Notes: a model not told the origin generated them from the sequence alone. A DNA stretch of 35,526 bases from Promethearchaeota archaeon (GCA_048939245.1 JBHLPR010000022.1:1-35526), one strand, 5' to 3'. Positions 5,202-19,775 are shown, counted from the first letter of the stretch. Numbers and translations are program-made.

Positions 5202-6671
5202 ATGAGCCCTTCCTCTCCTCCCCCACATTCACAGGATAACATTTCCGATACTCGCCGATTTGAACCACGGCAGTATCAAGAACATATCCTTCAACGAATC
5301 AAGGACAATTGGGAACACAATATTTTGGTGGAACTGGACTGCGGACTTGGGAAACGTGTTATCACCTTCAAATTGGTGACGGAATATTTTCCGGAGACGC
5401 GATTCATCATCACTGTGAATTCTTCTTCCTCGCTTCAAGAAACTGCGCAATACCTTGAAGAAGAGTATGGAGGTGTTGATGGGTTAGGGGTCCTTTCTCC
5501 CCGTATTCAGGGGCGTCGTCGTCAACAACTTCTTCATGACTCCCGAGTTGTGCTCTGTACGCCACGTGTGCTAGCTAATATCCTCAAAAAGGGAGGTTTT
5601 TCGAGCTCAGATTTTGAGGGACTCTTAATTAATGAGGTGGATACGCTTCTTCGACGGGTAGGAGATACTCGAGTTCTCATTCAACCTTGGAGTTATTTGC
5701 TAGAGTTTTTCAAAGAAAATTGGATTATCGGGCTTAGTGGAACACTCCGAGATGACCATGTAGTATTCAACCAAGCTCAACTCCAGATTCGTGACGAACT
5801 TCAAACACTTGCTAACTTTCTACCCAACGTTGAACTCATTAGCATGGATGAACTCATAGACACCGATTTGGATCAATATATCAAACACACTATCCTCGAT
5901 GTCATCCCTGTCGAAGATTCCGTCATACGCGCAACTTCGCTTGTCGTCGATGAACTAATCCAATCTACTCGCGATCAAATTTATCAAATGGTCCGAGAAA
6001 ACTCAGAGCAAAGTATCAGAGAACTCCCAGAATCCACTCGCATGCTACATTTGATGCTCCATGAACTCCCCATCCCCGAAGAGCTCGCCCAGCAATATAG
6101 TGGACTCCTCATGACCCGAAAATATCTTTACGGTATGGCCTCCAAGAGCTTTCGCCGATATCTTCATCATCCCACGATCAAATCCCAGATTGATATTAAC
6201 CGCATGATGCAAGACTGGCCAAAAGTTACCCCTAAATCTCTGAAAGCTCGAGACCTAGCATTGAAGGCGAAAAGAACTATCATCCTCTCCTCATATCTCA
6301 ATGTCGTGAGCGAAATCGAAGGACTGCTACAGGAGAAAGGCGTTCACACTTTCCAGCTTACTGGACGAACTCCAGACAAACAAGCTGTTTTAGCCGATTT
6401 CAAACACGCTAAAACTCCAGCGGCTGTGATTCTCTCGCCAGTCGGTGAACGAGATCTCGACTTGCCCGATGCTGATCTTCTTATTATCTGTGATACTGTA
6501 AATACGGTGAAGACGATTTACCAGAAAATGAAACGCAGCCGGGGTGGACGAGTTAGCTTTCTAGTCTATGCAAATACATCCGAAGTCGGAAAGTTACGAC
6601 GTCTCCTAAATAACATTATGGACCGATATCCTTGGTCCACCCGATATGGCAATACAAGCGCCTTGTACTAA
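5202..6671 (+). CDS. Hef/FANCM/Mph1-like SF2 helicase with degenerate ATPase motifs and no ERCC4 nuclease domain
   Basis: EPRQYQ, NILVELDCGLGKR (cf. LPTGLGKT), CTPR, INEVD (cf. DEAH), GLSGT, GERDLDLP, QKMKRSRGG (cf. QRxGRxGR). Confidence 0.75.
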   Translation: MSPSSPPPHSQDNISDTRRFEPRQYQEHILQRIKDNWEHNILVELDCGLGKRVITFKLVTEYFPETRFIITVNSSSSLQETAQYLEEEYGGVDGLGVLSPRIQGRRRQQLLHDSRVVLCTPRVLANILKKGGFSSSDFEGLLINEVDTLLRRVGDTRVLIQPWSYLLEFFKENWIIGLSGTLRDDHVVFNQAQLQIRDELQTLANFLPNVELISMDELIDTDLDQYIKHTILDVIPVEDSVIRATSLVVDELIQSTRDQIYQMVRENSEQSIRELPESTRMLHLMLHELPIPEELAQQYSGLLMTRKYLYGMASKSFRRYLHHPTIKSQIDINRMMQDWPKVTPKSLKARDLALKAKRTIILSSYLNVVSEIEGLLQEKGVHTFQLTGRTPDKQAVLADFKHAKTPAAVILSPVGERDLDLPDADLLIICDTVNTVKTIYQKMKRSRGGRVSFLVYANTSEVGKLRRLLNNIMDRYPWSTRYGNTSALY

Positions 6672-7864: not shown

Positions 7865-7981
7865 ACAACTCCGAACCTCGGGGTCAGTTACTAGTGTGTC
7901 CTATCTAGCATGACTCCAATTATATCTCTGTATTACAAGGATTTAACAATTCAAAACAATGTTGGAACATGTGAATCACGC

Positions 7982-8614
7982 ATGGTCGAACAAGAAATTC
8001 AATCGAATGAAGAACAATCACGGATTCCACCGGTCTTTCCTGTGTATATCTTCGAGAGGACTTGCAAAGAGATATTCAACTACTGCCTTGATGCAGCTTT
8101 AGGTCCCTCACGACGGGAAGCCTTAGGCGTCATCCTGGGCTTTCGCCGAATCTGGAATGGAGAAAAATACATTCGGGTCACCGATTGGGCAACGGGACGT
8201 GTTGAAGCCAGTATTGCTCATGCACGATTCACACCTGAAGGCATTCTCGAATATCGACTTGCACTCCATGACCGGTACGGAAATAATCCTCATACTCCTC
8301 GGGTCGTAGGTCTTTGGCATTCACATCCGTTTGGAGGCAATCCTCACTTTTCCTCGACCGATTTGAACACATTCTTTAATACGCCCTTTTGTGCTGAAGG
8401 AAACGTGTTCTTTTTGATTGATCCAATAAGTGAGATTTTTAAAGTCTACATGCTCCGCGAACGCCTTGATGAGCCTGGTCTACAACTTGAACAAGTAAAA
8501 TGGTGTACGTATCGTCCCTCTGTTCCCCTTGGTAAACCTGAATCTCGCAAAGACTTGGTCGCACCTGAGGAGGTTGAACCCGGTAATGACGAGGAAAACG
8601 CCCACGCCGATTGA
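7982..8614 (+). CDS. JAB/MPN+ (JAMM) metalloprotease, putative Ubl maturase/deconjugase
   Basis: REALG Glu and WHSHPFGGNPHFSSTD (HxH...SxxD). The start is probably ATG 7982 (the ORF is open from 7910). Confidence 0.9.
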   Translation: MVEQEIQSNEEQSRIPPVFPVYIFERTCKEIFNYCLDAALGPSRREALGVILGFRRIWNGEKYIRVTDWATGRVEASIAHARFTPEGILEYRLALHDRYGNNPHTPRVVGLWHSHPFGGNPHFSSTDLNTFFNTPFCAEGNVFFLIDPISEIFKVYMLRERLDEPGLQLEQVKWCTYRPSVPLGKPESRKDLVAPEEVEPGNDEENAHAD

Positions 8615-9500
8615 TCTTCATTTCTTTGAGAAGGATCATCATGATCGAACTCGCCGCTGGTTAGGGGTCACCAATCTAGAAACAATTCGACAGTCTACAG
8701 TACTCATGATTGGGGCTGGCGCTGTGGGTAACGAGGTATGTAAGAATCTTGGGTTACTGGGTATTGGCAAAATTATTCTGGTCGATCCTGATAAGGTCGC
8801 GACCTCGAATTTGAATCGGTGTGTGTTCTTTCGACCTGAGGATCATGATGTGAAGTCCAAAGTCGATGCTGTGGCGGAACGACTCCCTGAACTAGCGACC
8901 GATACACGAATCGACCCTTATGCTATTCCTATTCAAGAAGCACCTGATAGTGTTTGGGATGTGGATCTCGTGCTCGTCGGGGTGGATAATCATTATGCAC
9001 GTTACTTGTTAAACGCCAAGAATCTCAGCTTAGATTCCCCTTTACCGTTGATTAATGGAGCTATGGGAAAAGATTTCGTTACCATTGATGTTCTGGCGCC
9101 ACCACACACAGCATGTCTAGTATGTTCTTGGAGTAAAGACTTTGTCGATGCTATTGTTGCGAATCAAGTGCGCACCCGCTGTGACCCTTTCTTCGTTGAT
9201 ACTCTGCCTCGCTTTCCCATGATTAGTTTCGTCACCTCGATTGTTGGCGCAGTGATGTCCTGGGAGGCGACCAAAGTGCTAGTAGGTCTACAACAATGGC
9301 GTAAAACAGGCAAATGGCAACAAGACTTGAAACCTGCTCTAGGGCGATACATCAAATACGACTTACAACGACATGAGACATCAACCGGAGCAATCCTGCC
9401 CAATCCCCGTTGCAGTGAGGCCTTCTGCCGTTCCAAACGAAAATATGCCCAATCTCTAAGAGGCTTGGAAACCCACGACCTGTCTCACCTTCCACGTTGA
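8586..9500 (+). CDS. ThiF/MoeB/UBA-family E1 activating enzyme
   Basis: GAGAVG, DPDKVATSNLNR, GVDN..AR, CLVC plus C-terminal CSEAFC Zn ligands, and a putative catalytic Cys in RTRCD. ATG 8586 overlaps the end of the JAB gene. Confidence 0.92.
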   Translation: MTRKTPTPIDLHFFEKDHHDRTRRWLGVTNLETIRQSTVLMIGAGAVGNEVCKNLGLLGIGKIILVDPDKVATSNLNRCVFFRPEDHDVKSKVDAVAERLPELATDTRIDPYAIPIQEAPDSVWDVDLVLVGVDNHYARYLLNAKNLSLDSPLPLINGAMGKDFVTIDVLAPPHTACLVCSWSKDFVDAIVANQVRTRCDPFFVDTLPRFPMISFVTSIVGAVMSWEATKVLVGLQQWRKTGKWQQDLKPALGRYIKYDLQRHETSTGAILPNPRCSEAFCRSKRKYAQSLRGLETHDLSHLPR

Positions 9501-10328
9501 ACTTAACCGAGGAGGACTAGTGTGTGGTTGTTGTCTCCAACTGACCTTGAATTCACGATTCGCCCGGATATCCATCCAATTCCCAATAATCAAGGGAAGG
9601 TGCCGATTCGTGATGCCCAGCCATCCATTGGAGCCAAACCAAGTTGGATCCATAGGCACCCACTGATTCCGAATCCATACCTCACTCCATCCATGCCGCT
9701 CCCATTTCTTCTTCGAAGCTGCGAATCCAGAGATTAACCGCGCAGGAATCTTTCTAGCTCTACAGATTGCTGCAAATAGCGCTGAGTACTCCGTACAGTC
9801 ACCAACTTGTTGTTCAATTGCGTATGCTGCCCCTCGCTCATGCTCTTGAGGAACATAACGGAGAGTTTTGGTGACTGCTCGCATAGCTGCTTTGATAAAG
9901 GGAATCAGCTTCCGATGTTTTTTGGCAAGATCACGGGCAAGATCTTTTATCAAGTGGTGATGGGACTCGATGAAATATTCGGGTTCTATATATGACTGCA
10001 GCCGGTTGGGGATTAAGCGATTTTGAATATCTGGTGATGGTTGATAGTGGATGGAGCGATTTCGAATTAAAGCGATGTATCCGCAGGTGAATGTATCATT
10101 TCCTGATAAGTGTGGACACGAGATATTCAGCCAGTTATTTCCCTCTTTATCACTAGCATGCCTACTCGTATTTGGATATGGTTTAATCTCCAACAGCTGT
10201 TGATACGGTTCAAAGGGTGGAGGAAACGCAAGCAGAATTCGAATGTTCGTTAAGGGGCTCGTAGTGGTATTCACTACTTGGGTTTGGTAGGTTAGACGAT
10301 GAGTCAGAATGGCTGAACCTGAAATCAT
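9456..10328 (-). CDS. Transglutaminase-like (papain-fold) protein with an intact Cys-His-Asp triad
   Basis: GDCTEYSALF, IPARLISG, HGWSEVW, WVPMDPTW. Confidence 0.9.
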   Translation of the reverse strand: MISGSAILTHRLTYQTQVVNTTTSPLTNIRILLAFPPPFEPYQQLLEIKPYPNTSRHASDKEGNNWLNISCPHLSGNDTFTCGYIALIRNRSIHYQPSPDIQNRLIPNRLQSYIEPEYFIESHHHLIKDLARDLAKKHRKLIPFIKAAMRAVTKTLRYVPQEHERGAAYAIEQQVGDCTEYSALFAAICRARKIPARLISGFAASKKKWERHGWSEVWIRNQWVPMDPTWFGSNGWLGITNRHLPLIIGNWMDIRANREFKVSWRQQPHTSPPRLSSTWKVRQVVGFQAS

Positions 10329-10711
10329 GGTTCCTGCCCATTTGATGTTGTTGATTCCTCGCTCTGGGCCTCGTCGTCATCAAGAATAATAACTCTACCT
10401 TCAGACGTGTGTTGTGGTTTTCGGTGAACATCACCCAAAAACACCACTTTCGAACCTCGACTAGAATTAGAGATTTCGGCTTCGCGACGTGGTCCGAGGA
10501 ATCGGCTGAAATGGGGCACATGCGTTTCAGTGCCTCGTGCAATGGCTCCTGGACAAATGTCTTCGCCTGCTTCTAACAATAAGGCACGGCAACTAGCACA
10601 AATGTAGCTCCCACAAGATGTGCATATCCACCATTGGCTCCTTGCTTCTTCGAGAGTCACTTGTGAATCGCAAGCCACACATTTGATATGCGATGCCCCG
10701 TGGACACTCAT
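10325..10711 (-). CDS. RING-like zinc-finger protein with a SIM-like acidic tail (putative E3)
   Basis: CVAC-x15-CTSC-x4-CASC-x11-CP...H; tail motifs KVVFLGD and RVIILDDDE. ATGA overlaps with the genes on both sides. Confidence 0.7.
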   Translation of the reverse strand: MSVHGASHIKCVACDSQVTLEEARSQWWICTSCGSYICASCRALLLEAGEDICPGAIARGTETHVPHFSRFLGPRREAEISNSSRGSKVVFLGDVHRKPQHTSEGRVIILDDDEAQSEESTTSNGQEP

Positions 10712-10926
10712 TCTTCTTGGTTCTCCTTCTCAGATTCTTTTCGGACATGGTGAACAGTGACTGAATAATGTGGGGAGAAATTCGGTGGCCGTTCTTCTTC
10801 AAATGGGATGTCTCGTTCTTGTAAGATCACAATCCCGTTATCCTTTGAGAGGTCTTCTGGTGAAGGTTGCTCGTTTTTATTGGGTTCCTCGGTATTTTTT
10901 TTATCATTAGGTGGCTGCTCTGCCAT
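10708..10926 (-). CDS. Small acidic, disordered protein with a SIM-like motif
   Basis: 72 aa, strong GGAGG SD, ATGA overlap with the next gene; rich in P/E/N/K with a GIVILQERD core. Confidence 0.7.
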   Translation of the reverse strand: MAEQPPNDKKNTEEPNKNEQPSPEDLSKDNGIVILQERDIPFEEERPPNFSPHYSVTVHHVRKESEKENQEE

Positions 10927-10938
10927 TAGACTCTCCTC

Positions 10939-11685
10939 CTAACGATCTTCATCATCAAGAATCCGTACAGTTGATTTTTCTTCAGGTTTATCTAGAATTT
11001 GGGGAGTTTTTCGTTGTGAAGTATCTGATGATGAATGAGGTGAAAGAATCTGGACCCGGCCCTGTCGTGGTGAGGTAGAGGCACCAGCTTGGTGTCTCGC
11101 TTCCCATAACCGGTCTAAGGTTTCGACGATATTTTTTGTGTCCTGTTCGTACCATGCCATCGCCGAACTATTGAGTCCATGATCTGATTCAAACTGGGAT
11201 GGTGGCTCTACGCGATCTGGTTTTAGCAGCACAAAGAATGGTAGATCCTCGAGAATTCGGTCAAGCTCTCCTCGAACGGAATAGCACGCATGACCTGTTC
11301 CACTGGCGGCGAGTCGAGGATGAAAAAGGGGGGTTTCAGCTGCAGGTCGGATGGTACCGATATTTTGTGGATATTCTCGTGGTAAATCAAAAACGAATCG
11401 ATGTTCATATCGGATAGCACCTTCATCCGTGAGTGAACGTGGTTGACGGACGATTCCAGGTAGATTCCGCATGGTGAATCGAATACGTTTGTATGCACCA
11501 TCACGATATCGGGCGATAATCGCAACGGTGAAATCACGATTACTCCAGGTGGTATTTTCTCGCCGTGGCGGGTCTGGATCCCATCCACGTCGCCCATAGA
11601 GATTATTGATAGTATCAAAAAATGTTTGAATCTGTGTTTCCACTCGGGCGTTGAAAAGTTCAATCGAGAATACGGGTCGTGTCAT
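10939..11685 (-). CDS. E2/UBC-fold conjugating enzyme with a disordered C-terminal tail
   Basis: FVFDLPREYP...TPLFHPRLAASGTGHAC fits the UBC pattern P-x-x-YP...FHPN...G-x-x-C, with the catalytic Cys present. ATG 11685 follows GAGGG (the ORF is open from 11700). Confidence 0.85.
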   Translation of the reverse strand: MTRPVFSIELFNARVETQIQTFFDTINNLYGRRGWDPDPPRRENTTWSNRDFTVAIIARYRDGAYKRIRFTMRNLPGIVRQPRSLTDEGAIRYEHRFVFDLPREYPQNIGTIRPAAETPLFHPRLAASGTGHACYSVRGELDRILEDLPFFVLLKPDRVEPPSQFESDHGLNSSAMAWYEQDTKNIVETLDRLWEARHQAGASTSPRQGRVQILSPHSSSDTSQRKTPQILDKPEEKSTVRILDDEDR

Positions 11686-11730
11686 GGTGTAATCCCTCAC
11701 AGATGCTTTGCCCTCCTGATTGGGCTCTAT

Positions 11731-12057
11731 TCATTGTTTCTGTCCAACTTCGGGAACGACATCAAGGAGGAAGAATTCGTCGTCAGTGATTTTCGGCTCA
11801 AGCTCACCAAAGGCCACACCGGGACTTAACCGTGTGGGCTCTGGAGCTTTGCGAATCAAGACGAACTCAGCACGTTGATCGCCGATTTTCGCTTTCGCCC
11901 AATCGTCAATACTGACACCTTCATCGCGGGCTTGTGTAACGAGGGTACGGATAACCTCCTCGACTCGAGTTTCCTCATCAATGCCAATCCGGAATTCCTT
12001 TTGGCGTGGCTCAACGTCGACAATGATTGAGCGCCAAAAACCTTCTTCGTTACTCAT
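11731..12057 (-). CDS. Ubiquitin-like (beta-grasp) protein ending EVG-QKQ
   Basis: Strand-strand-helix pattern SIIVDV / EFRIGID / ETRVEEVIRTL, then FVLIRK, LSP..AFGEL, ITDDEFFLLDV and a near-terminal Gly. First gene before the E2; AGGTGA SD. Confidence 0.72.
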   Translation of the reverse strand: MSNEEGFWRSIIVDVEPRQKEFRIGIDEETRVEEVIRTLVTQARDEGVSIDDWAKAKIGDQRAEFVLIRKAPEPTRLSPGVAFGELEPKITDDEFFLLDVVPEVGQKQ

Positions 12058-12299
12058 GTCTGTTCACCTACAAGGTGAGGGTTATATCATCCACATTAAC
12101 TTTATGTGAACCTTAGGCGGCTTCTTATCCTTTTTAACGGTTGAAAGAGAATAGGTCGGCTTAATATCGCAGATAAATGGCGCCGACTCCTTCGTTGGAG
12201 TGAAAGTTTAAGAGTCACGGACTAGTCTGACTTAGTAGACTTGGGCAAGAGTGAAAATGGCATCTGCTCAGGATAACCCGCGGGAGCTCATCTGATAGA
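12058..12299. promoter_or_regulatory. Divergent promoter region between the Ubl operon and the SMC operon
   Basis: 242-bp gap between head-to-head genes. TATA-like elements near 12082-12087 (-) and GAAAGTTTAAG at 12202-12212 (+); short inverted repeats at 12064-12078 and 12092-12108. Confidence 0.55.
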
Positions 12300-15194
12300 A
12301 TGACCACTAGGCAAGAGACAACCCTTTCAACCTCACCGGTCGTGTTTCGCAGTATCCGCCTAGTCAATTTTGTCATTCATCGCGACACCACTATTGAACT
12401 CGATGAGTCACCCGTCGTTCTCATCACCGGATCAAATGGAAGTGGTAAAACTCTCATTCTTGATGCGCTTCTGCTAGCTATTGGAGTTGAATCTAGGCGG
12501 GCTCAACGCCAACGAAATTCCGCCTTCATTGGACGATTTGGCAAATATGCCGAAGTCGAATTAGAACTTAATAACTTCCAGATCAACGGGTGCCGTGTCT
12601 TACGTAGCCCTGATACCGCTTTATCCAAACTTCTGGACAAAGATGTGGTTTCGATTCGCCTTCGGATTCATAATACCAACAGGGTATCCTATTGGCTGAA
12701 TGGGCAACGATCGGTAAATGGACACCAAATTGCGCGAAAGGATATCCGAAAGCTGTTTCAAGCGGCTGGGTTGTTCGGGGATTCTCCACTAGCGGTTACA
12801 GAAGCTGAAACATTAGATCATTTTGCTTCTCAATCACCTCGAAGAAAATTCGAAACGCTTCTCAACGAAACTGGATTAAGGAGTTGGATGGAAAAACTCG
12901 AAGAAGCCCGACTATTAGTTTTACAGGCAAAAGCCAATGTTAAACCTCTTGAATACCGCATTCGCCATGAACAACAACGGCAACAAGTTTTGAAAGCAGC
13001 CTATGAAGCCTTTCAGCAAAAACAGCAACTCCAACAACGACAAAAAGACCTCGATGTTGAAGCTGCTTGGGCAGAAGTCTCCTACCGCGAAGAACTCGCA
13101 ACTCAACTCCAATCACAGATTACGACATTAGACAATCAACTAACAGTTGAGAATGGCAAACTGGACAAACTCAATTCCCGTCAGGCTAGTCTACAAGATA
13201 AGTTGGATGCAAATCTGGCCAAACGGGAAAAACTCTTGGCAACAATGAACGAGCTCCGCGACCAGCAAATGCAATCTCAAGGACATCGTCAAGGATTAGA
13301 AAATGAACTTAACGCACTCAAAGCACGGACAAAACGATATACTAGACGTCAGAAACCTGCTAATACAAAAATCGACAGCATTCAGAAAGAATTAGACGAA
13401 TTCGTGAGTGAGCGAGATAAACTCGATGATCAACTGTCACAGGTTCGTCAAGATGTAGCATCAGCTGAAGAAGGACTCTTCTCGCAGCCCCAACGGTACC
13501 CACACTTTGAAGAAAAAATCCTTCGCGCCTGTCTACGTTTTCGTTCTGAACTAGATAAAATTGCCCTCTCCGATTCAGTCATTGGTCCACTTTTTACGCT
13601 TATCCGGATGAAACCTGAATATACCCAACATGAAACTGCGGTGAAACTCGCCTTAGGTCGCTACACCTACTCGTTTATCGCACTTAACCGCGAAGTTTTC
13701 GTCGAAGCCAAGAACCTTTATGATCGGCTCTGGCCTCACGAAAAACCTGACTTGGTGGTCGCCCGTACAAATCCCACCACTGCAATCACGCGAGACCGGC
13801 CGGCTGTTTCATCACCTGTAATTGGGTGGGCTGCAGATCTCATCGAAGGCGATCTGTACGCGGTGAGTTTTCTTAACCGTGTAGTAAATACTGCCATCGC
13901 AGAAGAAGGTGCTGATCCAAATACGTTAGTAGATGCCACTCAACAGCTCAATGGTAACATCATCACTAGTGAAGGTTCAAGCCATTATCTCCGAATAGGC
14001 GCATTTACTCGTCCTCCCCGTCCAGTAACTGTCAGCTTAGATATCACACTCCATGAACTGAGTCTAACACACGACGTTACTGACGGACGTCGCCAGCTTC
14101 GCGAACTTCGGGAGCAGGAAGCTCATTTCATGCGGGATCGGATGCGCATTAATGCAGAGATAAGCCAACTTCGATCTATCCTTCAAGATTTGCAGGCAGC
14201 CCATACCATTCAGCTATCTAGTGAAGAACGAACTGCTTTAATCACGGATGCAGACCGTCGCATTACAGAACTTCAACAGCAGATTCTTGAATTAGAAACT
14301 GGCTGTGATGCACTCAGCCAAGATTATCAAGACTGTAACTCGGATTTATCGCCACTCAATTCCAGACAACAAGAAATCACAGGACAACTCCACACTCTTA
14401 GCTCACGGCAATCTCGTCGTCAAGCAGAAATTGACCGTTTATCTGATGAGCTCAAACAACGAGAAGATGAATACGAACATCTCATGAAACAAACCAAGGA
14501 CTTCCGAAAAGCTGCAACCAAGCTTGCGGAACGCCCTGCGGTGGTTCGAGAACCTACTGCGATCCGTGATGAGCAAATCCAAATCCAGGCTATGATTGAT
14601 ACTATCACAGCAACGGCAGAAGATCGTCACGCTTTTGAAGAACAAGAAAAGGTGGTGTCTCAACTCCAAGAATATCTCACTCAACGACAGCTTCATCTTG
14701 AAAATCTCATGACGGACGTTGATCGTCGATTACTGGAGTGGCGGCGACAACTCGAACAAACAGTCGAAACTTTGAACCAACGAATGAATCAGCTGCTTAG
14801 CCACTTCCTCAAACAAGTCAAATTACTTATTCGCTTTCCTGACGAACCCAGTCGGGCAGAACTCCACCTCCAATTGGCTATCAATCGTAGAGGTGAATGG
14901 CGAACCTATCAGGAAATGTCGGGCGGGGAACGTGTGCTGGCTACTCAAACCTTTATTTTAGCACTGCATACCCTTGCAAAGAGTCCTCTTCACGTGATTG
15001 ATGAATTCACTCAACGTCTAGATGAAGCAAGCCGCGCAGCAATTCTTAGTGTCGTTCAGCGAGCCCTTGATTTGACCCAGCAAGAATCACTAATCAATCC
15101 CCAATTTCTATTAATGGCTCCATCCACAGTAGGGCTTCAGATTCCAGAGACAATGCACCACGTGGTCCTCCTTAAAGGGCAGGTGAAGAAATGA
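12300..15194 (+). CDS. SMC-family ATPase of Smc5/6 type
   Basis: IRLVNFVIH, Walker A GSNGSGKT, two coiled coils around a hinge (VIGPLFTLI...AVKLALGRYTYSFI), signature MSGGER, SPLHVIDEFTQRLD, QFLLMAP. Confidence 0.88.
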   Translation: MTTRQETTLSTSPVVFRSIRLVNFVIHRDTTIELDESPVVLITGSNGSGKTLILDALLLAIGVESRRAQRQRNSAFIGRFGKYAEVELELNNFQINGCRVLRSPDTALSKLLDKDVVSIRLRIHNTNRVSYWLNGQRSVNGHQIARKDIRKLFQAAGLFGDSPLAVTEAETLDHFASQSPRRKFETLLNETGLRSWMEKLEEARLLVLQAKANVKPLEYRIRHEQQRQQVLKAAYEAFQQKQQLQQRQKDLDVEAAWAEVSYREELATQLQSQITTLDNQLTVENGKLDKLNSRQASLQDKLDANLAKREKLLATMNELRDQQMQSQGHRQGLENELNALKARTKRYTRRQKPANTKIDSIQKELDEFVSERDKLDDQLSQVRQDVASAEEGLFSQPQRYPHFEEKILRACLRFRSELDKIALSDSVIGPLFTLIRMKPEYTQHETAVKLALGRYTYSFIALNREVFVEAKNLYDRLWPHEKPDLVVARTNPTTAITRDRPAVSSPVIGWAADLIEGDLYAVSFLNRVVNTAIAEEGADPNTLVDATQQLNGNIITSEGSSHYLRIGAFTRPPRPVTVSLDITLHELSLTHDVTDGRRQLRELREQEAHFMRDRMRINAEISQLRSILQDLQAAHTIQLSSEERTALITDADRRITELQQQILELETGCDALSQDYQDCNSDLSPLNSRQQEITGQLHTLSSRQSRRQAEIDRLSDELKQREDEYEHLMKQTKDFRKAATKLAERPAVVREPTAIRDEQIQIQAMIDTITATAEDRHAFEEQEKVVSQLQEYLTQRQLHLENLMTDVDRRLLEWRRQLEQTVETLNQRMNQLLSHFLKQVKLLIRFPDEPSRAELHLQLAINRRGEWRTYQEMSGGERVLATQTFILALHTLAKSPLHVIDEFTQRLDEASRAAILSVVQRALDLTQQESLINPQFLLMAPSTVGLQIPETMHHVVLLKGQVKK

Positions 15195-15988
15195 TGATTT
15201 CCAATGATACTTCTACTTTCCTCCGTGCCTTTCCGCGACGTAAAGCCTGGTACGACACATTCCAGCATAACTACAAACGGAATCAGCTAACCAAACATGG
15301 CACAAAAACCGTGGTCATCACCCTCTGGAATCTCACGAAAAAATACGAAGTAGCTCTCAAACAACATGAGGTATTTCCCGTTAAAGAAGCGGAAATAGAC
15401 CGCGAGGAAGTCACTGATGCATATCGCGTACTCGAAACACCTTGGGAACGAAACCTCGATGGTCGCTTCTATTACACACTTGCTTCAATGCAACACCATC
15501 GCGATTCTCAATTGGCTACTCCTGAAATTGCCCCTGAAGAATGGATTTCCCAATTTGCCAATGAGGTTAAACGTCGGGCTACTCCTCTTCTGTTTCTAAT
15601 CAATCCTGATCATACTATTCCACCGCTCGATTTACCTCCTACAGATTCTCCTGTAGCAATGGCTGAACCACCTTCCCCCGACGATCAGCAGGCAATGCGC
15701 CGACATCGAATACCTTTCAAAGACATTTCGTTCGATGATCTTGATGCCCGGCGAGCCTCAATCGTGAAGCGCCTCCAAGGAAAACGGTACAACTACATAG
15801 CATTATCAGAACTCTTAACAAACTGGGAATTGGATCTATTAAGCCAACTGATTCGAGATGATATACTCCCGGCTACCTTCGAAAAAACTGTAGTTCACTT
15901 CCGGAAATCATCACCATCTCGAAAAGCGGATTCAATATATGCAGCTGTTGCTATTGCTGCAAAAAACCATGAGGAGGTTACACATTGA
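15191..15988 (+). CDS. Hypothetical protein, putative kleisin (Nse4/ScpA-like)
   Basis: Overlaps both the smc stop and the KITE start. Helical N-terminus, Pro-rich linker (PPLDLPPTDSP..EPPSP) and a C-terminal region compatible with a winged helix. The kleisin call is positional only. Confidence 0.45.
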   Translation: MMISNDTSTFLRAFPRRKAWYDTFQHNYKRNQLTKHGTKTVVITLWNLTKKYEVALKQHEVFPVKEAEIDREEVTDAYRVLETPWERNLDGRFYYTLASMQHHRDSQLATPEIAPEEWISQFANEVKRRATPLLFLINPDHTIPPLDLPPTDSPVAMAEPPSPDDQQAMRRHRIPFKDISFDDLDARRASIVKRLQGKRYNYIALSELLTNWELDLLSQLIRDDILPATFEKTVVHFRKSSPSRKADSIYAAVAIAAKNHEEVTH

Positions 15989-16632
15989 CGACATCCAATC
16001 CCCCCTCTTCTGAATCCGCCAAACCCACCGATACGCCAAAAGACGATGAATTCGAGCAACGCCATCTCCTCGGTCAATTATTCGCCGCACTCACCGCACG
16101 ATTTCGTAATGAAGAAGGGCAACTCAGCATCGGAGTCAAACGGCAAAATCTTCTAGAAGCTCTGCATATCAACAAATCAGGGCTGACTCGTCTACTGGAT
16201 TTACTCCGGCAACAGATTTCCCCCCTTGGATTGGAATTAGTTGAATATCGATTGGGACGTGATACCCTCTATTGTATCCGAACTATCTATGGCGTTCCAG
16301 GAGAACTCTCAGATCCCGAATATGCTGTACTCGGAGTTATCATCTCCACGGTGGAACGTGCTAGTAAACATCGCCGACCGCGACACGTCTCGACGAAAGA
16401 TATCGAAACTATTCTCGTTGCCCGTGGGCGCCTTTCCCGTTATCAATTGGATAAAATCCTAAGGCGTCTGACGGAATTGGGATATATTAACCGATCTACT
16501 CGACGAGTGGCTTATGGTCCACGACTCGAACTTGAATTTGATTCGGAACGTCGCGAAGCCATCGCCAACGCTGCCACCCTCTATCTCGCTGGTGCCGTTT
16601 CTCAAAGGGAGGACACAAAGAATGAAACTTGA
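15985..16632 (+). CDS. KITE tandem winged-helix protein (Nse1/Nse3-MAGE/ScpB-like)
   Basis: LLDLLRQQISPLGLELVE (wH-A), LSDPEYAVLGVII, LDKILRRLTELGYI...YGPRLELE (cf. MAGE/Nse3 WGPRAxxE). Confidence 0.75.
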   Translation: MTTSNPPSSESAKPTDTPKDDEFEQRHLLGQLFAALTARFRNEEGQLSIGVKRQNLLEALHINKSGLTRLLDLLRQQISPLGLELVEYRLGRDTLYCIRTIYGVPGELSDPEYAVLGVIISTVERASKHRRPRHVSTKDIETILVARGRLSRYQLDKILRRLTELGYINRSTRRVAYGPRLELEFDSERREAIANAATLYLAGAVSQREDTKNET

Positions 16633-17083
16633 TCTTTCTACAGTCGGGATTAGTTGTGTGGCGTGTGGTACACGAACAACACTCGAAGAGGCAATTCAAA
16701 ATGGGTGGCATCAATGTCTCCGTTGTCAATTTTTCATTGATCCCCATTGTCTTCAAATCGTCCAAAACACCATGGGTGGTACATGTCCGTCATTTAGTCA
16801 AGGCGTTTCTCGCCATACTCTACAGCTATCTGACATTCCTTCAGAACAAATCCTCATCTTTGTAAAAGATCAATATCAGAAAGGTCGGGTCGGGGTCTTA
16901 ATTGACACTCTGTTTTATTCTAAGGATCTAAGGTTAGAAAAACCTCACCATTCGAGTCGGCTCCACCCCGAACCTGAAGAAGCCCTTACACGAGAAGAAA
17001 TTTGGCAACGCTACGGTCTTGTTTTAGTTCAGCGAACTCAGGGCAAATGGAAAACTTGGGAAAAAATTGGTACTACAGGCTAA
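16622..17083 (+). CDS. RING-like zinc-finger protein (Nse1 RING-like), paralog of 10325-10711
   Basis: CVAC...GWHQCLRC...IDPHC...CPS...H. ATG 16622 follows a GGAGG SD and overlaps the KITE stop. Confidence 0.7.
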   Translation: MKLDLSTVGISCVACGTRTTLEEAIQNGWHQCLRCQFFIDPHCLQIVQNTMGGTCPSFSQGVSRHTLQLSDIPSEQILIFVKDQYQKGRVGVLIDTLFYSKDLRLEKPHHSSRLHPEPEEALTREEIWQRYGLVLVQRTQGKWKTWEKIGTTG

Positions 17084-17504
17084 AATCCCTACAAAGCGTA
17101 AACTATTTACCACTCACTCCATTACAACTTTTCAACGAATTTACATTGCGTGCTATATGGAGTTATTGGGTGTGGTTGACGCAAAATCTCCTAGTTGGGT
17201 AAAGCAAGTTGTTCGACGATGGAAACAATTCTATCAAGAAATCCAATATGCTGATGGGCAACTGGATATGTCAAATCCCCTGAGCCTTATCTTCCAAAGA
17301 GAAATTCTTCCACAAGAAGCAGCAGCGCAAACCGCTAAAGGCGTTTCCCCATCACCTGAACCGCTTCCTTCGAAGAAAAAAGAGTCGGTAAAATCTCAAC
17401 CACAGAAAGCTCCGTCAAAAACAAAACATAAACAGAATAAAGGGCGGTTTTTCTCCAAACTAAAGGAAATCCAATGTCTCCTCAACCCTTACCCCTTTTT
17501 CTGA
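17067..17504 (+). CDS. Hypothetical protein, last gene of the SMC operon
   Basis: Overlaps the previous stop; helical N-terminal half and a Lys/Pro/Ser-rich basic tail. Confidence 0.6.
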   Translation: MVLQAKIPTKRKLFTTHSITTFQRIYIACYMELLGVVDAKSPSWVKQVVRRWKQFYQEIQYADGQLDMSNPLSLIFQREILPQEAAAQTAKGVSPSPEPLPSKKKESVKSQPQKAPSKTKHKQNKGRFFSKLKEIQCLLNPYPFF

Positions 17505-17505
17505 G

Positions 17506-18492
17506 CTAGTCTGATTCCTTCGCTCCTACTCCAAGTTCGGTGAGGATCTTGTCAACGATCTCCTTAGCTTGTTTTTTCGTGGCTGCTGATTCCGTAGTTG
17601 GTTCATCGCGAACATCGGCAGGAAGCTGGGGGAGTCCAGCAAGTGTTCGGACAATTCCGGAGATGGCGTGTTTAGCGACTGACACTTCGGATCCTCCGGA
17701 TAGTAATACGACTAATCGACCTGAACAGACTTCTTCTGCGGCCTGCATAAGAATCTCCGTCATAGCTGGAAAGGCCGCTAATGACAGATTAAATCCACCA
17801 TAATCCAATGCGTGTGCATCGTGTCCCATATTCCATAGAATCATCTCGGGGCGAATCTGACGGGCCAAGGGGTGCACCAATCGGCGAACTGCTGTGACAA
17901 AGGAGTCATCACTACTGCTGCTGGGAAAGGGAACGTCTATATGGCGGTGTGTGACCAAATCGAAGCTCTCTCGAAAACTCGCTTCAAAATTCAGATGGTA
18001 TACTCCTTCATCGTCACCAAGCGTATCACGAGTTCCATCTCCTGGATGGGGATCTGTATCAACAATGAAGAACCGTTTCGCTCCATGTGTTTGCTGCAAA
18101 TGGCGCACTAATAACGCTGTGTTATTGTAATAGCAGAATCCCCAAAAGGAATCACGGCTTGCATGGTGCCCAGCACAACCAGTAAAAGCAAACGCATTCG
18201 CAGCGTCACCTACCCACACAGCTTCACCAGCACGAATAGCTGAACCACTGGATACCAATGAAGCAGGATCATACCCTGAATCTTTTACCCTTCTGATGTG
18301 ATCCGAAGTATGGACCTTTAGAAGCAACTTTTCACTTACTTTCGGGGCTTCTTCTACTTTGGTCTGGGTAGCATCGAGAGTTCCAGTTTCTCGAAGATAA
18401 TCAAAGGCTGGTTGTACTCGGCCCGCCAATACTGGGTAGCCTTCAACCGCCATTAGAGGGTGGTAAAGAATAAGGGTTGGTTTCTTTCTCAT
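17506..18492 (-). CDS. Zn-dependent histone deacetylase family protein
   Basis: GHHA, GFCYYNN, DTDPHPGDGT, GHDAH..D, and LSGGS (normally EGGY). Confidence 0.92.
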   Translation of the reverse strand: MRKKPTLILYHPLMAVEGYPVLAGRVQPAFDYLRETGTLDATQTKVEEAPKVSEKLLLKVHTSDHIRRVKDSGYDPASLVSSGSAIRAGEAVWVGDAANAFAFTGCAGHHASRDSFWGFCYYNNTALLVRHLQQTHGAKRFFIVDTDPHPGDGTRDTLGDDEGVYHLNFEASFRESFDLVTHRHIDVPFPSSSSDDSFVTAVRRLVHPLARQIRPEMILWNMGHDAHALDYGGFNLSLAAFPAMTEILMQAAEEVCSGRLVVLLSGGSEVSVAKHAISGIVRTLAGLPQLPADVRDEPTTESAATKKQAKEIVDKILTELGVGAKESD

Positions 18493-18566
18493 CGTGAAAA
18501 CCGCCTTAATATATGTGGGCGAAAAAGGATTTAACAGGATATGCTATTCTACTCGACAAGCTAAGG

Positions 18567-19775
18567 ATGGGATTAGCATTGGAAATTCGAAAGATTACCA
18601 AAGATGAACGCTTGGCCCTTAATGATCTCTACCGCTACGCCTATACTGAATGGTCAGATCAGGACGTGAAGGATGAAGAATTAGATGATATGCGCATAGA
18701 AGAAACTCTTGGGGTGTTCGAAAATGGACGTTTGGTCTCGTCGTTACGTGTTCATGATTTCCAACAATCTGTGCGCGGTGTTCTCAAATCATGTGGAGGA
18801 ATCGCAGGTGTCGCCACTTACCCAGAAGCCCGACGTAAGGGATTTGTTCGTAAATTAATGCAAGAAAGCTTTACCATCATGCACAAGCAAGGGCAATCGG
18901 TTAGTATGCTCGACCCTTTCAAACAAACCTATTATGAACAATTCGGTTTCGTCGCTGCGAATGCTCCTTATCTCATTGAAGCTCCCATCAAACAGCTAAC
19001 AGTCTGGCATCCAAAGAAACAAGACTCCGATTGGACCTATGAACGCGTTCGTGCAGTCAACGCTAAAGAGGATTACTTAAACTTCGTCCGAGAGGTAGGT
19101 CCCAGTCAATATCATGGCTATATCATTTTCAAAACCATTCCCGATACCATGTGGAAACGACGAGTAAAAGATAGTGTCATCGTCTTCGTAAAATACAAGG
19201 GAAATACTGAGGCATTGAGCCGTTATCGAATCAAAGGTGAACGCATCAAAGGGCAATACCGTTCCACATTCCATGTGATTGATGCCCTTTGGCGATCTAG
19301 AGCGGCTCGAGACCGACTCTTCGCCTTTTATTTGAAGCATCAAGATCAAATCGACAACATCAGTATCCATGCTCCCTTCGAAACTAAAGTGGAACATTGG
19401 TTCAAAGATACTCGATTGAAAGTTGAGCGCAAAACAACCTGGATGGTTCGTATCATCGATGCGAAAAAAGCTATTGAGGACCTTCCAGGAGCCGGCGAGG
19501 ATATCATTTCTGTTGAACTTTCGGATAGTGATTGTCCCTGGAATAACGGTGTGTTTTCTCTGCAATCGGAAAAAGGGCGATTGCGTCTAACTGAAAGCTC
19601 CGGACACTCTGTTGTCAAAAGCTCAATCCAAGCCTTTTCTTCATTACTATATGGGACGCAGTCCCTTGAGGAACTAGAGTTCCAAGGCAATATCACAGTT
19701 TCCGAAAAATGGGCTAGACATATCCTCCAACGCTGGTTTCCCCCTCTCTCCCTGTATAATGTTGTTTACTTCTAG
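18567..19775 (+). CDS. Eis-family GNAT acetyltransferase
   Basis: GGIAGVATYPEARRKG, YYEQFGF, SCP-like C-domain (DSDCPWNNG) and a C-terminal Phe. The start was chosen by alignment to the paralog. Confidence 0.9.
   Translation: MGLALEIRKITKDERLALNDLYRYAYTEWSDQDVKDEELDDMRIEETLGVFENGRLVSSLRVHDFQQSVRGVLKSCGGIAGVATYPEARRKGFVRKLMQESFTIMHKQGQSVSMLDPFKQTYYEQFGFVAANAPYLIEAPIKQLTVWHPKKQDSDWTYERVRAVNAKEDYLNFVREVGPSQYHGYIIFKTIPDTMWKRRVKDSVIVFVKYKGNTEALSRYRIKGERIKGQYRSTFHVIDALWRSRAARDRLFAFYLKHQDQIDNISIHAPFETKVEHWFKDTRLKVERKTTWMVRIIDAKKAIEDLPGAGEDIISVELSDSDCPWNNGVFSLQSEKGRLRLTESSGHSVVKSSIQAFSSLLYGTQSLEELEFQGNITVSEKWARHILQRWFPPLSLYNVVYF

Follow-up and report, generated by a model that had tools for sequence, protein, structure and literature searches.

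Among eukaryotic SMC complexes only Smc5/6 comes with E3 ligases of its own, namely the RING protein Nse1 and the SP-RING protein Nse2. Eukaryote-like ubiquitin operons comprising ubiquitin, E1, E2, a small RING finger protein and Rpn11 are known from Caldiarchaeum and Asgard archaea. To our knowledge, bacterial operons for E1, E2, JAB and a ubiquitin-like protein (Ubl) contain neither a RING-like component nor an SMC partner. Archaeal SMC5/6-related operons of three genes, encoding an SMC protein, a kleisin and an Nse1/3-like kite, have been described in the TACK and Asgard groups, and the RING of Nse1 was reported to be lacking in archaeal kites and to be an innovation of eukaryotes (bioRxiv 10.1101/2024.01.07.573240). 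The ligand pattern of the variant RING of Nse1 is C4HC3 (PMC8750328). The present work concerns a 35,526-nucleotide stretch of DNA (the window) from a Promethearchaeota archaeon of the Asgard group Hermodarchaeota (GCA_048939245.1, JBHLPR010000022.1:1-35526), in which two genes for RING-like proteins, named here ZnF1 and ZnF2, lie in two divergent operons, one for a Ubl conjugation set and the other for an SMC-like complex. To judge from the alignments the two proteins are beyond doubt homologous, true paralogs, and the two operons very probably constitute one system. What is new is that an SMC-kite complex, a candidate E3 of RING-like type and a Ubl cascade of prokaryotic type, each of a kind known separately, occur in combination; a literature search found no paper on a finger gene in SMC operons or on its link with a Ubl set. 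The two proteins and their parts are as follows.

10325..10711, minus strand: ZnF1, RING-like putative two-zinc protein of 128 amino acids, in the Ubl operon
10496..10690, minus strand: ZnF1 finger domain, residues 8-72; putative ligands C11, C14, C30, C33, C38, C41, C53 and H64
10328..10495, minus strand: ZnF1 disordered tail with two conserved motifs resembling SUMO-interacting motifs (SIM-like), SKVVFLGD and GRVIILDDDE
16622..17083, plus strand: ZnF2, RING-like protein of 153 amino acids, fourth gene of the SMC-like operon
16646..16837, plus strand: ZnF2 finger domain, residues 9-72; putative ligands C12, C15, C32, C35, D40, C43, C55 and H65
16841..17071, plus strand: ZnF2 C-terminal extension, modelled as two helices, a low-confidence linker and a three-stranded sheet

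Like Nse1 and the MAGE-RING ligases, ZnF2 is a RING-like finger, presumably tied to the kite of an SMC complex that is neither cohesin nor condensin, with a link to Ubl conjugation. Ligands 1-4 of ZnF2 are Cys and are followed by x4-(H/C/D)-x2-C as in Nse1, and the gene order, kite and then finger, is the domain order of Nse1. Unlike Nse1, ZnF2 is a separate polypeptide with a C-terminal domain of its own, the kite and the finger being encoded by separate, overlapping genes in all loci read, and its ligand set is C4(C/D)C2H, with Cys or Asp at position 5 and His at position 8. Searches of PDB sequences and family profiles found no sequence-level link between ZnF2 and Nse1. The C4C4 RING of TFIIH p44/Ssl1 differs from both proteins described here, whose last ligand is His and which have no vWA domain.

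The SMC operon resembles the archaeal SMC5/6-related operons in being a second SMC operon besides the canonical SMC-ScpB and in its order SMC-kleisin-kite, but it has a constant fourth, RING-like gene (59/62 genomes, see below) and, in several families, a private Ubl set. As in the Caldiarchaeum-type operons, compared here by description only, a small stand-alone RING-type protein is encoded together with Ubl, E2, E1 and a JAB/MPN protein; unlike in those operons, the E2 and the fingers escape the Pfam UQ_con and RING models, canonical E2s are encoded elsewhere, and there are ties to SMC and transglutaminase-like genes. The bacterial Bil-type operons likewise combine a prokaryotic JAB and a compact E1 of the ThiF type with a divergent E2 and a C-terminally extended Ubl in one cluster, although no Bil model of PADLOC specifically matched the E2, Ubl or JAB of the locus. 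ZnF1 is similar to the SUMO-targeted ubiquitin ligases RNF4 and Slx5-Slx8 in combining a finger with SIM-like strands in a disordered arm. In ZnF1, however, the motifs are C-terminal and not N-terminal, similar motifs also occur on the E2-like protein and on the small protein p72, and binding to the Ubl, like dimerisation, is putative.

Pairwise BLASTP aligned ZnF1 with ZnF2 at E 4e-8 and 26 % identity, and profile-profile comparison of the two ortholog families (hhalign) gave a probability of 99.0 and E 2.4e-18 over 88 columns. Together with the RING-type structure matches presented below, these values uphold the proposal, made in a preliminary description of the window, that the two proteins are RING-like paralogs. 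A six-frame search of the whole 2.52 Mb assembly found two copies of the finger, ZnF1 and ZnF2 themselves. The alignments, which comprised 13-19 relatives of ZnF1 and 17-39 of ZnF2, share the ligand series C-x2-C-x13/14-C-x2-C-x4-(C/D)-x2-C-x12/13-CP-x9-H, and its eight positions are conserved in both families. The spacing of the eight ligands is of the RING type in both, with an unusual last pair (C...x10...H, or C-x4-C in a subgroup). C11, C30, C33, C38, C41, C53 and H64 are invariant in ZnF1. A distal His as the last ligand and an Asp in place of one Cys in the SMC-side copy had both been noticed in the preliminary description, and both observations proved right: the His never varies in ZnF1 and hardly does so in ZnF2, one subgroup having a C-x4-C pair there, and Asp at ligand 5 is fixed in ZnF2 of Hermodarchaeota, with Cys in the other families examined.

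Database relatives of both fingers are named Promethearchaeota, Thorarchaeota or Hodarchaeota. In a tree of the finger domain (66 columns, weak and with long branches) the ZnF1 proteins of Hermodarchaeota grouped with the ZnF1-like proteins of a Heimdallarchaeota family, f21 (78/78), and stood apart from ZnF2 of Hermodarchaeota. This grouping points to an old duplication and speaks against a recent local duplication as the origin of ZnF1.

Genes were called in the region of 7.9-17.5 kb of the window and scanned against the Pfam, NCBIfam and PADLOC libraries. Besides the two finger genes, the locus comprises the following.

7910..8614, plus strand: JAB/MPN metalloprotease (Prok-JAB, 2.7e-6)
8529..9500, plus strand: E1-like ThiF-family adenylyltransferase (ThiF, 2.4e-35); the true start is probably downstream of 8529
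9456..10328, minus strand: transglutaminase-core (papain-like) protein (Pfam Transglut_core, 1.2e-20)
10708..10926, minus strand: p72, small and conserved, encoded next after the E2; one SIM-like motif
10939..11700, minus strand: divergent E2-like protein without a Pfam match; the likely start is the ATG at 11685
11731..12057, minus strand: Ubl candidate of 108 amino acids, C-terminus VG-QKQ
12300..15194, plus strand: SMC-like ATPase of 964 amino acids (Pfam SMC_N, 2.6e-22), the second SMC of the genome
15191..15988, plus strand: p265, in the kleisin position, without a family match
15985..16632, plus strand: p215, kite-like winged-helix protein with weak MarR-type matches
17067..17504, plus strand: p145, poorly conserved, overlapping the ZnF2 stop

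The minus-strand genes are transcribed in the order Ubl, E2-like, p72, ZnF1 and transglutaminase-core, and the SMC operon diverges from them on the plus strand. The start codon of ZnF1 overlaps the stop codon of p72 and its stop codon overlaps the start of the transglutaminase-like gene (ATGA in both cases). ZnF2 overlaps p215 by 11 nucleotides and is preceded by GGGAGG; its start, the ATG at 16622, is the same in all orthologs (MKLDLSTVG). Because of these start and stop overlaps both finger genes are considered integral to their operons. Canonical SMC and ScpB are encoded on other contigs of the same genome. None of the three libraries had a family above threshold for the E2-like protein, the Ubl, p72, p265 or p215. 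On gene position only, p265 is a kleisin candidate. For p215 the language-model leads were MAGE (0.82) and DUF4194 (0.81), both below the 0.9 level, and its profile gave no usable match among PDB sequences. The SMC is probably 'Smc5/6-like', a designation based on the literature and on its belonging to the second SMC complex of the genome.

The relation of the two operons was followed across families. In Hermodarchaeota they are divergent, as in the window, and the whole arrangement is kept in the loci whose contigs span it; matches to the finger family were present in 14/14 genomes of the genus and in 17/18 other genomes of the family. Candidatus Asgardarchaeum abyssi has SMC-p265-kite-ZnF2-JAB-E1 on one strand and Ubl-E2-p70-transglutaminase on another contig, and a short contig of Sifarchaeum carries kite-ZnF2-JAB-E1. 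The f21 family of Heimdallarchaeota has nine genes head to tail on one strand, SMC-p265-kite-ZnF2-JAB-E1-Ubl-E2-p72, followed 6 kb downstream by a ZnF1-like gene and then a transglutaminase-like gene. JAB lies directly 3' of ZnF2 in families f5, f10 and f21 and on one high-GC contig. The two operons are very probably one system because three different gene orders retain the same partners. This is stronger evidence than the paralogy of the fingers, which the preliminary description had taken as the best: its conclusion of one system stands, but the finger family extends more widely than the two operons and ZnF1 is not a local duplicate.

The distribution search covered 400 genomes of the phylum. 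Full-length ZnF2 was found in 62 of them and the kite in the same 62/62; in 59 the kite gene is directly upstream of ZnF2, on the same strand and within a few tens of bases, and in the remaining 3 the two genes are on separate contigs. The private E2 family was present in 32/400 genomes, all of them in families with ZnF2/SMC (71/400). In three Heimdallarchaeota families (f4, f17 and f18) the four-gene SMC operon stands by itself, with no private E2 or Ubl; in f4, ZnF2 was found in 28/31 genomes and the private E2 family in 0/31. Since the kite adjacency is so constant and these operons occur with no private E2, ZnF2 appears to belong primarily, as a subunit gene, to the SMC-like complex, with the Ubl set as an add-on. 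Independent occurrence of the paralogs, which in the preliminary description would have spoken against one system, was thus seen in part, ZnF2 being found apart from E2 and Ubl in these three families and A. abyssi having no detected ZnF1.

Canonical E2s with UQ_con are encoded elsewhere in all five genomes checked, including the source genome, and therefore possible E2 partners are still available where the SMC operon stands alone. In the source genome they lie on another contig (C54:5780-6157 and 9217-9498), so the E2 and Ubl of the locus would be an additional, private system.

One metagenome contig of high GC content (L104, Logan DRR538840, 1442 nucleotides, 70.5 % GC) carries kite-ZnF2-JAB, with a kite 41 % identical to p215.

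The carrier of these high-GC genes is presumably not an Asgard archaeon, which suggests horizontal spread of the module. Such a close copy in a distant background, as well as the patchy distribution among Asgard families, would be expected if the whole locus were a defence module against mobile DNA, in which a Wadjet- or Lamassu-like SMC DNA sensor is combined with a Bil-like Ubl conjugation set and the fingers serve as specificity or effector adaptors and not as chromosome-maintenance factors. The best PADLOC matches, LmuB and JetC for the SMC and CBASS/Bil-type E1 models for the E1, agree with this explanation, but they are of the generic ATPase and adenylyltransferase kind, and no defence model matched the kite, the kleisin, the E2, the Ubl or the fingers. 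The operon contains no nuclease or toxin gene. Furthermore, the locus keeps its place beside HDAC and GNAT genes in every Hermodarchaeota locus with a recovered flank, and finger-family matches occur in all genomes of the genus. A defence function is therefore regarded as very improbable.

The structures of both proteins were modelled with AlphaFold2. The predicted local distance difference test (pLDDT) score exceeded 90 over residues of about 10-80 in ZnF2 and 8-72 in ZnF1, and strands and helices follow one another identically in the two models, each of which has its central helix after ligands 5 and 6. The C-terminal part of ZnF2 reached a pLDDT of about 80-90 over its first helix and the sheet and 43-68 across residues of about 91-120. 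The three-stranded sheet carries the most conserved block of the family, REE-W...G-VLV-R..GK...WE. After residue 72 the pLDDT of ZnF1 falls below about 60. The contrast drawn in the preliminary description between SIM-like tails on one paralog and a folded extension on the other agrees with these models, ZnF1 having a low-confidence tail with two motifs and ZnF2 helices and a sheet.

In an exhaustive structure search (VIA) against 48,161 PDB representatives, nearly all of the top 50 matches of either model were RING, U-box, SP-RING or ZZ domains, at low scores. For ZnF1 the matches were RNF4 (Z 5.6, root-mean-square deviation 2.9, 56 aligned residues), which was the top match, U-box (5.4), Ring1b (5.3), Nse2 (4.9), Nse1 (4.6 and 4.5) and p44 (4.2); for ZnF2 they were U-box (5.1), APC11 (4.9), RNF4 (4.9), Nse2 (4.8 and 4.5) and Nse1 (3.9 and 3.8). 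TRAF6 and Slx1 appeared in the same score band as Nse1, Nse2 and Ring1b. In the ESM Atlas, too, RING-type clusters made up most of the nearest shapes, all at TM below 0.5. The Nse1 structures, 2ct0 (Z 3.8 and 4.6) and 7dg2_A (Z 3.9 and 4.5), scored within about 1-1.3 Z units of, or below, RNF4, U-box, Ring1b and TRAF6, and p44 was matched by ZnF1 only. The likeness to p44/Ssl1 and Nse1 suggested in the preliminary description is thus real among the structure matches but unspecific, being no better than that to other RINGs. A specific homolog of Nse1 or p44 was not adopted as an identity for the fingers, since by the VIA scores it is indistinguishable from RINGs in general.

In the alignment the E2-like protein shows an HPR motif, conservation of Cys134 and, in the tail, three SIM-like repeats, and its language-model neighbours carry UQ_con (0.92, 183 shared features). 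The Ubl ortholog of Asgardarchaeum abyssi (L037:6349-6657) stops exactly at VG, and the Ubl of the source stretch ends in VG-QKQ; the two endings fit processing to a C-terminal Gly. The tail of ZnF1 contains the motifs S-x-V-x-[IF]-L and G-[RK]-V-[IV]-I-L-D-D, conserved in the Hermodarchaeota orthologs and in the ZnF1-like protein of f21. A common strand motif, (G/S)-x-(V/I)-x-(I/V/F)-(L/I), frequently with acidic residues after it, occurs three times in the E2 tail (10942-11100, minus strand), twice in the ZnF1 tail and once in p72, and is kept in the Asgardarchaeum and f21 orthologs. As far as the motifs can tell, the E2-like protein, ZnF1 and p72 likely share a docking site, either on the Ubl, in the manner of a SIM, or on part of the SMC complex.

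ZnF1 itself is confined to genomes with the private Ubl set, those of Hermodarchaeota, f21 and perhaps f20. It was not found in the Asgardarchaeum abyssi genome (93 % complete), although E2, Ubl, JAB, E1 and ZnF2 are present there. The transglutaminase-like gene adjoins ZnF1 in both families that have ZnF1 (f1 and f21), so that this gene, and not E2, is its constant neighbour; a ZnF1-like copy at a contig end (G112) does not enter into this adjacency evidence.

RING heterodimers such as BRCA1-BARD1 and Ring1b-Bmi1 are well known, and a ZnF1-ZnF2 heterodimer, considered plausible in the preliminary description, could physically bridge the Ubl machinery and the SMC complex. The two paralogs do co-occur in all Hermodarchaeota and most f21 genomes where the assembly allows, and heterodimeric RINGs (Ring1b-Bmi1, TRAF5/6) were among the fold matches. 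Since A. abyssi has the private set and ZnF2 with no detected ZnF1, such a heterodimer cannot be essential. In f21 the ZnF1 gene stands 6 kb from the cluster, next to the transglutaminase-like gene; the model has no flanking helices, the usual builders of RING dimers, on the ZnF1 side; and the branch of ZnF1 is old and does not pair in the tree with ZnF2 of the same genome. The bridging heterodimer is accordingly thought improbable.

The explanation preferred here is that ZnF1 and ZnF2 belong, as long-separated branches, to one Asgard RING-like family in which ZnF2 is an SMC subunit and an adaptor for E2 charged with Ubl (E2~Ubl), and ZnF1 an adaptor of the Ubl module; we hold it with confidence evenly balanced between acceptance and doubt. 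To the homology, the conserved ligands, the confident finger models, the operon membership and the cross-family linkage, all of them observed, it would add zinc binding, E2 docking, E3 activity, a role for the tail and every physical contact. ZnF2 would be a stoichiometric accessory subunit of a second complex of the SMC-kleisin-kite type, probably the archaeal 'SMC5/6-related' one, its gene being presumably coupled in translation to that of the kite and its conserved C-terminal domain anchoring it to the complex. Where the private Ubl, E2, E1 and JAB are present, the finger of ZnF2 would dock the divergent E2~Ubl and thereby lead to modification of the SMC complex or of its neighbours on the DNA, an E3-like adaptor role comparable to that of the Nse1 and Nse2 RINGs on Smc5/6. 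ZnF1 would be the soluble paralog of the Ubl module, with the same finger and a disordered tail, and might act as a second adaptor that brings the transglutaminase/papain-fold enzyme, or the E2, to Ubl-marked proteins.

E2 residues 1-200 and ZnF2 were co-folded, each with its own alignment, in three runs and with three controls. The score was 0.60 (0.60, 0.60 and 0.59 in the runs) in comparison to 0.01 for the best control, which places the pair in the weak-support class; the runs shared at least 58 % of contacts, and the partner pLDDT was at least 74. The mark was reached by 58/80 solved complexes and by 2/110 mismatched pairs. Since RING and E2 are a textbook pair, the pass of E2 with ZnF2 may reflect likeness to solved complexes and not binding.

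Several results weigh against the E3-adaptor explanation. A co-fold score of 0.60 or lower was seen in 7/80 solved complexes and in both passing mismatches. The identity of the divergent protein as an E2 is weakly evidenced by its sequence: its profile matched UBE2C/Ubc9 among PDB sequences at E of about 0.4, below an unrelated acyl carrier protein (E 0.12). The VIA scores, with Z not above 5.6, lie in the range where according to the tool a common arrangement alone may explain a match; Foldseek against PDB gave a best E of 0.12 for the two models and nothing at E 0.001 or better; and no RING model of Pfam, NCBIfam or PADLOC passed its threshold for either protein. Sub-threshold profile matches were scattered over zf-UDP, zf-RING_4/5, zf-RING_UBOX, FYVE, B-box, IBR and C1, and the best match of the ZnF2-family profile among PDB sequences was the cellulose synthase RING at E 1.1. 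For the low Z and Foldseek values and the lack of a passing RING profile the two proteins are called RING-like and are assigned to no named RING family; the ligands may bind zinc with cross-brace pairing. In several branches the position of the second ligand holds Asp, His or Asn, and ligands of site 1 are replaced by these residues, or lost, in parts of the family. Given these substitutions, the first zinc site appears to be plastic and the second firm. Finally, ZnF2 keeps its ligands in families with no private E2 or Ubl (0/31 genomes in f4), which indicates a role independent of both.

The last two of these points are also what would be expected if the fingers were structural or nucleic-acid- or protein-binding zinc modules with no E3 activity. 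ZnF2 would then stabilise the kite-kleisin module or contact DNA, ZnF1 would be an adaptor binding the Ubl or an enzyme, and the Ubl would act on the SMC complex without a RING-type E3, as in the bacterial E1-E2-JAB operons, whose components the E1 and JAB of the locus resemble. The failure of RING models is in keeping with it, and the variant RING of Nse1 itself has a structural role (PMC8750328). Against this stand the dominance of E2-binding RING and U-box domains among the fold matches, the placement of the finger gene, which in three gene orders has the SMC genes on one side and the JAB-E1 genes on the other, and, in the weak-support class, the co-fold of E2 with ZnF2; moreover, canonical E2s are available in the genomes that have no private system. 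Fingers devoid of E3 activity are therefore considered a serious possibility, if a rather unlikely one.

ZnF2 could be a free-standing archaeal forerunner of the Nse1 RING, Nse1 having arisen by fusion of the neighbouring kite and finger genes; this idea is tentative and, on the whole, doubtful. Were it true, an SMC5/6-type complex with a RING-like subunit at its kite, and along with it a dedicated Ubl cascade, would have existed already in Heimdall-group Asgard archaea, and the link of SMC5/6 with E3 ligases would have been inherited from archaea and not invented in eukaryotes. Among the Asgard groups most closely related to eukaryotes, the kite gene of the second SMC operon is constantly followed by a RING-like gene, and that operon is repeatedly joined to a private Ubl-E2-E1-JAB set. 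The origin of the SMC-E3 partnership could be tested with recombinant proteins, and a four-subunit prokaryotic model would be at hand for the coupling of SMC to protein tagging. ZnF1, with its SIM-like arms and papain-fold partner, may point to the reading or erasing of marks in an archaeal Ubl pathway.

The same type of finger also occurs fused C-terminally to a SWIM zinc finger or to a coiled-coil/winged-helix-like region on other Asgard-type contigs (P0079, P0085, P0090 and P0077; P0072, P0075, P0083 and P0087; L107 and L108). One of these contexts has TPR genes and the other WD40 and small-GTPase genes, and neither has SMC or Ubl genes close by. A distant member of the finger family, P0061 (67 % GC), has unrelated genes as neighbours.

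Downstream of ZnF2, p145 has a basic, Lys-rich tail and is recognisable in 5/13 Hermodarchaeota loci at 37-54 % identity; it could represent either a fifth gene in rapid evolution or no gene at all. Directly after the SMC operon (17506-19775) are an HDAC-family gene on the minus strand and a GNAT/SCP2 acetyltransferase gene on the plus strand. Such neighbours were found beside the locus in none of the other families; among the Hermodarchaeota loci examined, HDAC was present in 13/13 and GNAT in 9/13, most of the others ending short of it. Upstream of the locus, a helicase-superfamily protein with ResIII and Helicase_C matches is encoded at 5202-6671 on the plus strand.

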